Below are positions 32,033 to 32,197 of a stretch of DNA of 32,680 nucleotides, piece by piece (the stretch's first letter is position 1; each line of letters starts with the position of its first letter). Below the pieces are notes generated by a model. It did not search any database. It had not been told where the DNA came from and saw only the letters and a program-made list of their open reading frames with translations. Source of the DNA: Actinomycetota bacterium (lineage in GTDB: Bacteria > Actinomycetota > Acidimicrobiia > Spongiisociales > UBA4744); assembly GCA_013152275.1 (NCBI GenBank), contig JAADGS010000069.1:1-32680 (forward strand), given 5' to 3'. The position numbers and the translations under genes were made by a program.

Positions 32033-32069
32033 AACAAAAAGGTCCGCTCCCGTCGCCGGTGCGGAGCCT
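32033..32069 (-). terminator. Intrinsic terminator in the metY 5' leader (putative attenuator)
   Basis: AGG(C)TCCGC-A-CCG-GCGA-CGG-GA-GCGGA-CCT followed by TTTTGTT. GC stem, GNRA loop and U-tract, 53 nt upstream of the metY ATG. Confidence 0.72.
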
Positions 32070-32089
32070 CGTTTTGCGTGGGTGGTTGC

Positions 32090-32158
32090 TTACGCGTCGA
32101 CGTCGCACGGCTTGGGACAAGCCATGCAAATCATTCGGGCGATGGGGACAACCTTCAT
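32090..32158 (-). CDS. Putative Met/Cys-sensing leader peptide [22 protein letters not shown]
   Basis: 22-codon ORF starting 10 nt after a -10 box. Internal Met9, Cys11, Met12, Cys14 and Cys18; ends 20 nt before the terminator stem. Confidence 0.65.
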
Positions 32159-32168
32159 CTGGCGTGCG

Positions 32169-32197
32169 ATCGTACACGACCCGGCCGCGCTCGTCAA
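32169..32197 (-). promoter_or_regulatory. metYX promoter TTGACG-17-TACGAT
   Basis: Near-consensus -35 (32197-32192) and -10 (32174-32169) with a 17-bp spacer. Confidence 0.72.

Follow-up and report, generated by a model that had tools for sequence, protein, structure and literature searches.

Contig JAADGS010000069.1 (assembly GCA_013152275.1) of an uncultured actinobacterium belonging to the class Acidimicrobiia was analyzed over 32,680 nucleotides (nt), which we call the window, with regard to a candidate leader-peptide transcription attenuator in front of the methionine biosynthesis genes metY and metX. The elements of the locus are read on the minus strand and are compiled in Table 1. The two genes form a compact unit, as the start of metX overlaps the stop codon of metY by 4 nt, and the metY start codon (ATG at 31979) is preceded by the Shine-Dalgarno (SD) sequence GGAGGGAG. 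Their identities, assigned in a preliminary description of this DNA, were verified by matches above the cut-offs of TIGR01326 and NF001209. The same description had placed a promoter TTGACG-17-TACGAT, an open reading frame (ORF) of 22 codons (32158-32090), a hairpin of two arms within this ORF and an intrinsic terminator upstream of metY, and each of them was recovered at these very positions. A consensus scan of 31400-32680 returned one promoter-like site, identical with TTGACG-17-TACGAT, while shuffled sequences gave 0.4 sites on average.

Table 1. Elements of the metY-metX locus in the window
Feature	Position	Strand	Basis or remark
-35 hexamer TTGACG	32192..32197	-	sequence reading; part of the sole promoter-like site in 31400-32680
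-10 hexamer TACGAT	32169..32174	-	sequence reading; 17-nt spacer from TTGACG
Leader ORF, 22 codons + TAA	32090..32158	-	ATG at 32158; TAA at 32092-32090
Proposed control codons Met9-Ile10-Cys11-Met12 (AUG AUU UGC AUG)	32123..32134	-	family consensus M-M/I-C-M-A; stalling geometry predicted
Arm 1, UUGCAUGGCUUG; conserved core UGCAUGGC at 32128-32121	32118..32129	-	8 core pairs with arm 2
Arm 2, CAAGCCGUGCGA; core GCCGUGCG at 32111-32104	32103..32114	-	partner is arm 1 or arm 3
Arm 3, CCGCACCGGC	32055..32064	-	5' arm of the terminator, also 3' arm of the antiterminator
Intrinsic terminator: arms 3 and 4, GCGA loop, tail UUUUUGUU	32033..32069	-	fold -16.7 kcal/mol
CCGCUCCC, complement of arm 4 (GGGAGCGG) and of the metY SD; possible anti-SD element	32017..32024	-	
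SD sequence of metY, GGAGGGAG	31983..31990	-	sequence reading
metY, O-acetylhomoserine sulfhydrylase, 439 aa	30660..31979	-	TIGR01326, 690.1 bits (cut-off 495.1)
metX, homoserine O-acetyltransferase, 352 aa	29605..30663	-	NF001209, 341.8 bits (cut-off 331)

The start codon of the leader ORF lies 10 nt past the -10 box. There is no room for an SD sequence upstream of it, and initiation would therefore be leaderless or nearly so. Among the 21 residues following the start, five are Met or Cys (binomial P about 3e-4, compared to 1.6% Met and 1.26% Cys in the long ORFs of the genome). Part of the ORF folds into a hairpin of 12 base pairs, UUGCAUGGCUUG-UCC-CAAGCCGUGCGA (32129-32103), in which arm 1 pairs with arm 2. 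Arm 2 can alternatively pair with arm 3, and arm 3 with arm 4 in the terminator. The three alternative helices are balanced in energy: in the window, values of -19.5 (1:2), -19.3 (2:3, arm 4 blocked) and -16.7 kcal/mol (3:4) were calculated, and the respective medians over the family of related leaders described below are -15.9, -19.3 and -20.7 kcal/mol. The fold of the 191-nt leader as a whole has a z-score of -2.90, with one of 200 shuffled sequences being equally stable.

MetY relatives with at least 74% identity were encountered at 15 loci in 41 related genomes, a tally which includes the unpublished genomes G023 and G034. At nine of these loci (81-100% identity), a homologous short ORF and hairpins are located upstream of the gene. 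When 151 genomes of the same order were searched with the covariance model R1, built on these nine leaders, 26 of them gave a match, 22 with a single strong match each (71.9-133.8 bits). By family, matches were obtained in f1 (7 of 18 genomes), f2 (10 of 19), f4 (7 of 19) and f11 (1 of 14), and in none of 80 genomes from eight other families; G023, and probably G034 too, are among the genomes of this search that lack the element. A specific DNA pattern detected 43 contigs among 185,579 species genomes; R1 confirmed 42 of these contigs, each of which bears the title of a metagenome-assembled genome or of an uncultured-bacterium assembly. Nearly all contigs found by the pattern are titled Acidimicrobiia, Acidimicrobiaceae or Actinomycetota metagenome-assembled genomes, and the members of the leader family all stem from metagenome bins. 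In total, 64 leader matches were collected, corresponding to 52 distinct sequences (the rows of the alignment), and in all 52 metY starts 39-75 nt past the terminator. A first, looser pattern had yielded at least 120 stretches; of the 80 that were fetched, none matched the model at E < 0.01 (best value 0.033), i.e. they are chance hits. The remaining contig of the specific pattern, a Paracoccus locus, had no R1 match and was dropped. One contig (QQUL01000121.1), labelled Armatimonadetes, is probably mis-binned: it encodes exactly the leader peptide of G031, a genome of the Acidimicrobiia, and on the MetY tree the proteins of the two group together.

Within the family, each of the 52 rows contains an ORF of 19-23 codons, starting with ATG (43) or GTG (9) and making use of all three stop codons, which bears out the expectation that a Met/Cys-rich upstream ORF should recur in related metY leaders. 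A TANNNT box was found 7-10 nt 5' of the start in the 51 rows that were scored (the remaining row was left out on account of an alignment offset), and TTGAC is aligned in seven of the nine rows of the first leader alignment. The conserved Cys codon is 9, 10 or 11 whole codons away from the start in the family, with no other values. The peptides share the core [R/E]-M-[M/I]-C-M-A (consensus M-M-C-M-A(-M)); the residues N-terminal to it vary freely, and outside the core the peptide is not conserved. There are two to five internal Met residues per leader, and post-start residues comprise 16.3% Met and 10.9% Cys, the Met share being about ten times the background in the long ORFs of the genome. 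Methionine is the dominant one of the two amino acids across the family. One clade carries a 2-nt insertion past the control codons, by which arm 2 is read in another frame while its nucleotides are unchanged. Hence, the frame matters as far as the control codons and the RNA matters beyond them. In 47 of the 52 rows, the leader stop codon follows the start of arm 2 by 19 nt.

The three pairings are conserved as well. The core of the 1:2 hairpin (8 pairs) is paired in 99.5% of the cells of the alignment, the 3:4 helix in 94.8% and the 2:3 antiterminator (9 pairs) in 92.3%, compared to 24-44% for slid controls of the latter. The 1:2 / 2:3 / 3:4 layout put forward in the preliminary description was thereby found throughout the family. 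The search model does not contain the 2:3 helix; it was to the other two helices that the alignment was fitted. At least four U residues within the 9 nt past the terminator stem were counted in 48 rows. The core of arm 2 is nearly invariant even across the Met-type leaders and the Thr-type leaders described below, and arm 1 can be regarded as a wobble copy of arm 3 (UGCAUGGC versus CGCA-C-CGGC). The same description had called for covarying stems, and one position was found to covary in both helices to which it belongs. In arm 3, column 116 varies in concert with its partner in arm 2, column 61 (GC in 29, AU in 22 and GU in one row), and remains paired with column 139 of arm 4 (CG in 29, UG in 15 and UA in eight rows). 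The pair of column 61 with column 35 of arm 1 is UG in 29, UA in 22 and CG in one row. Each of the covariation events preserves both alternative helices.

A short ORF at the start of the presumed transcript, enriched in Met codons, with a terminator before metY and a mutually exclusive antiterminator, is the combination by which leader-peptide attenuators are recognized, and we consider it probable that the metY-metX operon is controlled by ribosome-mediated transcription attenuation. Transcription would start at the AUG (32158) or a few bases 5' of it, and the 22-codon leader would be translated by leaderless-type initiation. As long as Met-transfer RNA (tRNA), and probably also Cys-tRNA, is charged, the ribosome would reach the stop codon, 19 nt past the start of arm 2, and mask this arm; otherwise, arm 2 would be taken up by arm 1. 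In either situation the 3:4 terminator could form and transcription would end near 32036-32033. A ribosome stalled at codons 9-12 (AUG AUU UGC AUG) would mask arm 1 instead, so that arm 2 (GCCGUGCG) could pair with the newly made arm 3 (CGCA-C-CGGC), no terminator would form and the polymerase would read through into metY-metX.

Several points weigh against this interpretation. What was computed here comprises the elements and how far they are conserved, the three pairings, the bias in codons, the gene context and the sister leaders; the start of transcription, translation of the leader, stalling and the 3' end (termination or read-through) are predictions from the sequence. Starvation for methionine should also reduce charging of the initiator tRNA, and hence translation of the leader, which by our reasoning would favor termination. 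In the genus of the window, the second control codon is Ile and two internal Met residues are left. A strict terminator pattern had no match in 31400-32680 because the stem is interrupted; the terminator was retained on the grounds of its fold and of the comparisons. Four of the 52 members possess two or three U residues only in the 9 nt past the stem. As to covariation, most paired columns are invariant. A quick MetY tree, which comprises 49 of the 52 rows (the short rows L187, L224 and L192 were omitted, and the badly extracted row L158 sits on a long branch), confines the A-U state of arm 2 and arm 3 to one clade, so that the events are few (about one double change, two to three changes of arm 4 inside the clade and one back-change). 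In addition, related rows are not independent of each other, and the fitting of the alignment to 1:2 and 3:4 has to be kept in mind for the values given above.

The question arises whether cysteine is sensed besides methionine. The preliminary description had treated the whole cluster of sulfur codons as control codons, which is likely to hold for Met9, Cys11 and Met12. Cys11 is kept in 51 of the 52 rows (UGC in 45, UGU in six). The Arg codons CGC and CGU do not occur there at all, although they would pair equally well or better wherever column 61 is G (29 rows), and in Thr leaders the place of Cys11 is occupied by Thr codons. Cys18, on the other hand, does not belong to the sensor, and Cys14 probably does not either. 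Cys14 is not conserved in the 52 rows and, by the estimated footprint geometry, would be too close to arm 2 for a stalled ribosome to set this arm free, which stalls at codons 9-12 would do. Cys18 (the C of "P-C") is scaffold, because its codon is part of the invariant arm 2 (GCCGUGCG) and it is found in Thr-type leaders too. The genetic background is compatible with a link between the two amino acids. A cysE gene above the cut-off was not detected in the genome of the window (best value 33.7 versus 210.65 bits). The same genome encodes, at L260 1480-3572, a CBS-like core (468.7 bits on TIGR01137, below the cut-off of 510.25), which is adjoined by a PRK07811-type cystathionine gamma-synthase/lyase gene (561.8 bits versus 513), as well as a second cysK-like gene (243 bits). 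Homocysteine produced by MetY may therefore supply cysteine as well, which would make a mixed Met/Cys sensor sensible. Dual sensing of Met and Cys by the leader is thus plausible.

The strongest argument for codon-directed control is provided by sister leaders, which were obtained from weaker R1 matches and by the scaffold model R2. They share with the metY leaders the -10 box, a distance of 9-10 nt to the ATG, GCCGUGCG, CCCGCACCGG, GCGGG and the U tract. Four Thr-rich leaders (e.g. MNAGFTTGMTTTTDGPCVSTV and MNHLAATTTTTTAPEPCG; L173, L174, L175, L177) precede homoserine dehydrogenase genes, three of which were confirmed by Pfam (PF00742, 201-216 bits), whereas the fourth was judged by eye. Eleven poly-Cys leaders, e.g. 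MTRHYTPCACTCTCCAAAPCG (L176, L178, L179, L237, L239, L241, L242, L245, L254, L255, L256), precede genes for a cysteine-synthase-like PALP enzyme and for TusA/DsrE sulfur carriers; the downstream genes were assigned by Pfam in two cases and by eye from the N-terminus of the next gene in eight, and one leader is situated at a contig end. In a class-wide sample, R2 gave 34 matches, comprising nine Met-type, two Thr-type and eight Cys-type leaders, 11 ordinary gene-end terminators or chance matches and four without a locus. All R2 matches in other orders fell into the group of ordinary terminators and chance matches, and among the R2 matches that were read there was no leader type for any further amino acid. 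In all three types the codon content follows the downstream pathway, suggesting that the codons, and not the peptide, carry the specificity. Owing to the wobble relationship between arms 1 and 3, AUG (Met) and ACG (Thr) codons both fit arm 2. It is conceivable that the Acidimicrobiia possess one re-programmable scaffold, consisting of a leaderless start, arm 1 as a wobble copy of arm 3, the invariant arm 2 GCCGUGCG and the CCGCACCGG terminator, which has been retuned to three amino acids by a few C-to-U changes in arm 1. The metY-metX version would then sense methionine biosynthesis and also read cysteine, since MetY/MetX would feed both via reverse transsulfuration. This wider proposal is tentative, and its chances are in our view somewhat below even.

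Downstream of the terminator, the preliminary description had noticed a further pairing, between CCGCUCCC and GGGAGCGG of arm 4. The two are indeed perfectly complementary, but the minimum-energy folds pair CGCUCC of CCGCUCCC with the SD region of metY. The leader could thus act mainly on translation, with CCGCUCCC hiding the SD sequence unless arm 4 is free, and the U-tailed hairpin would be of minor importance. A precedent is the mycobacterial leader Ms5788A, for which control at the translational level is reported in the passages compared (bioRxiv 10.1101/834739). The duplex of arm 4 with this segment reaches -20 to -21.5 kcal/mol (z-scores of -2.4 to -4.0) in five close relatives, i.e. the genome of the window and four others, and only there. 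In 37 of the 52 rows, the segment pairing best with arm 4 overlaps the segment pairing best with the SD sequence by at least 4 nt. Across the family, however, both duplexes are only about 0.9 standard deviations more stable than shuffled sequences (mean z about -0.9), and a general relay from arm 4 via an anti-SD segment to the SD sequence was rejected on the basis of this value. Moreover, arm 4 and the SD sequence are both G-rich, so that any C-rich run suits both, and the hairpin is followed by its U-rich stretch in the great majority of rows. Purely translational control is therefore unlikely. A translational layer acting through CCGCUCCC may instead exist in addition to transcription attenuation, as a second layer rather than a rival.

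Arrest peptides can sense an amino acid directly in the ribosome, as TnaC does with tryptophan. If the nascent R-M-M-C-M-A were such a peptide, free methionine or SAM (S-adenosylmethionine) and not tRNA charging would be the signal. The strong conservation of the core residues would fit, and by our reasoning the difficulty that methionine starvation affects initiation would be sidestepped. However, RNA pairing and codon identity account for the conservation of the core, the residues flanking it vary freely, and in the Thr and Cys sister leaders the corresponding position is filled by runs of the cognate codon, the hallmark of stalling that depends on charging. This makes an arrest peptide quite improbable. 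An RNA switch binding a ligand or a protein (a novel riboswitch or the target of an RNA-binding protein), to which the ORF would be incidental, could explain why arms 2 and 3 are highly conserved as nucleotides even in the clade reading arm 2 in the other frame. Its structure would consist of three simple alternative hairpins lacking a junction or pocket, though, while the ORF, its start beside the -10 box and its whole-codon length are kept in all 52 rows, the codons of each leader type match the downstream pathway and Rfam gave no match; such a switch is very improbable. Finally, the ORF could have arisen by chance or be a small-protein gene in its own right, ended by a terminator of its own, with metY being transcribed from a separate promoter. 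This is hardly tenable: the leader has Cys-containing motifs, but the gap between terminator and metY is constantly short, the promoter scan disclosed no second site, the peptide is not conserved outside its core and the conserved 2:3 pairing would be left without a role.

Concerning established riboswitches, the preliminary description had demanded that SAM riboswitches and T-boxes be excluded, and the comparison with Rfam did so. A permissive scan of 31700-32680 with all 4227 families produced only two matches, with E-values of about 7 and to unrelated families; neither a SAM riboswitch nor a T-box nor a known leader family matched at the leader. RF00162 (SAM-I) had no match in the whole genome of the window, which is rated 100% complete, nor in five leader-type loci scanned alongside. 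By contrast, the other six of the 15 MetY loci (74-77% identity) are preceded by a SAM-I riboswitch (65-92 bits), and altogether seven such loci with values in this range were found upstream of metY. SAM-I occupies the same position before related metY genes of the same order and is likewise terminator-based, but its aptamer senses SAM directly. Genome G015 contains both systems, one metY behind a Met leader (L006, contig C138) and another behind SAM-I (77.9 bits; L257 1294-1407, contig C81). Thus, metY exists in two lineages that differ in the sensor occupying this slot, and a simple replacement of SAM-I by the leader was ruled out. Switches of sensors between species are a subject of Naville and Gautheret in the part of their work compared here. 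In G015, SAM and the charging of Met-tRNA may be sensed in parallel. In two relatives (L010 614-712 and L012 3557-3666), SAM-I and metY are about 800 nt apart, and the riboswitch precedes a different gene, which extends to metY; here the riboswitch appears to control a longer operon.

Methionine biosynthesis is usually described as being governed by SAM riboswitches, Met T-boxes or protein repressors. For Trp, His, Thr, Leu, Phe and Ile/Val, the textbook mechanism is attenuation by a leader peptide. In the full-text literature searched (subscription journals not covered), no published Met leader-peptide attenuator of methionine biosynthesis genes was found, and the searches agree with the earlier remark that a mixed Met/Cys leader of metY-metX is undescribed. 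Most likely, this is a known mechanism hardly documented for methionine, the Met leader before metY-metX being new. The classical attenuators of E. coli trp and Salmonella his, as summarised in the passages of Canestrari et al. compared here (bioRxiv 10.1101/834739), resemble the leader in having a short ORF with codons for the end product, mutually exclusive terminator and antiterminator, and a stop codon placed such that the finishing ribosome blocks the antiterminator. Classical attenuation is also described for the ilvB1 uORF (upstream ORF) of M. tuberculosis in the parts of a recent study used for comparison (Nat Microbiol 2026, PMC13236596). What separates the metY leader from the classical systems is its leaderless start devoid of an SD sequence, the specificity for methionine (with cysteine) and the absence of any relationship in Rfam.

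The closest actinobacterial counterpart is Ms5788A, which is depicted in the passages compared as a poly-Cys leaderless short ORF (sORF) acting on translation, with a very stable duplex over the SD sequence and no terminator (bioRxiv 10.1101/834739). With the mycobacterial poly-Cys sORFs, as far as these passages go, the metY leader has in common a leaderless sORF in Actinobacteria, codons for sulfur amino acids and a position before genes of sulfur amino acid metabolism. It differs from them by the conserved pair of terminator and antiterminator, the dominance of Met codons and the operon metY-metX. It contains one to four Cys residues, which are not consecutive and one of which is encoded by the scaffold, and its control codons pair with arm 2 and not with the SD sequence. 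Even the poly-Cys leaders of the Acidimicrobiia carry a terminator, unlike the mycobacterial Cys sORFs. Cys leader peptides were described by Seliverstov et al. 2005 (PMC1262725), who, in the sections compared, report no RNA structures before methionine or threonine operons in the Actinobacteria they studied. For Deinococcus deserti, 14 leader peptides with leaderless starts were predicted from the mapping of transcription start sites (de Groot et al. 2014, PMC4007540), one of them for the Met-tRNA ligase gene, one for the Cys-tRNA ligase gene and none for metY or metX. These predictions are a precedent for the idea but not for metY-metX, since they concern another phylum and other genes, and alternative structures are not given in the passages compared.

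A conserved Met-codon attenuator would fill a gap among leader-peptide attenuators. It would also be a test case of how a ribosome can report a shortage of methionine although initiation itself needs Met-tRNA. One RNA scaffold with three codon programmes (Met, Thr and Cys) would amount to a natural experiment, and together with the relative harboring two sensors the scaffold family would illustrate both the exchange and the retuning of sensors. Furthermore, the leader adds a cis-regulatory annotation to a class known almost exclusively from metagenomes.

The genome of the window harbors one copy of the leader according to the models R1 and R2 and a regular-expression scan, all of which returned the metY copy only. 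A second O-acetylhomoserine sulfhydrylase gene exists in the same genome (L258 1443-2816, contig C56), whose product is 59% identical and scores 629.6 bits on TIGR01326; the upstream stretch scanned contained no Rfam elements. On the 3' side of metX, the minus strand of the window encodes a hisG-type ATP phosphoribosyltransferase (28390-29313) and a protein of 556 aa (26723-28393). The latter is an unusual fusion of a histidinol-phosphate-aminotransferase-like domain with a HAD hydrolase domain (TIGR01548).

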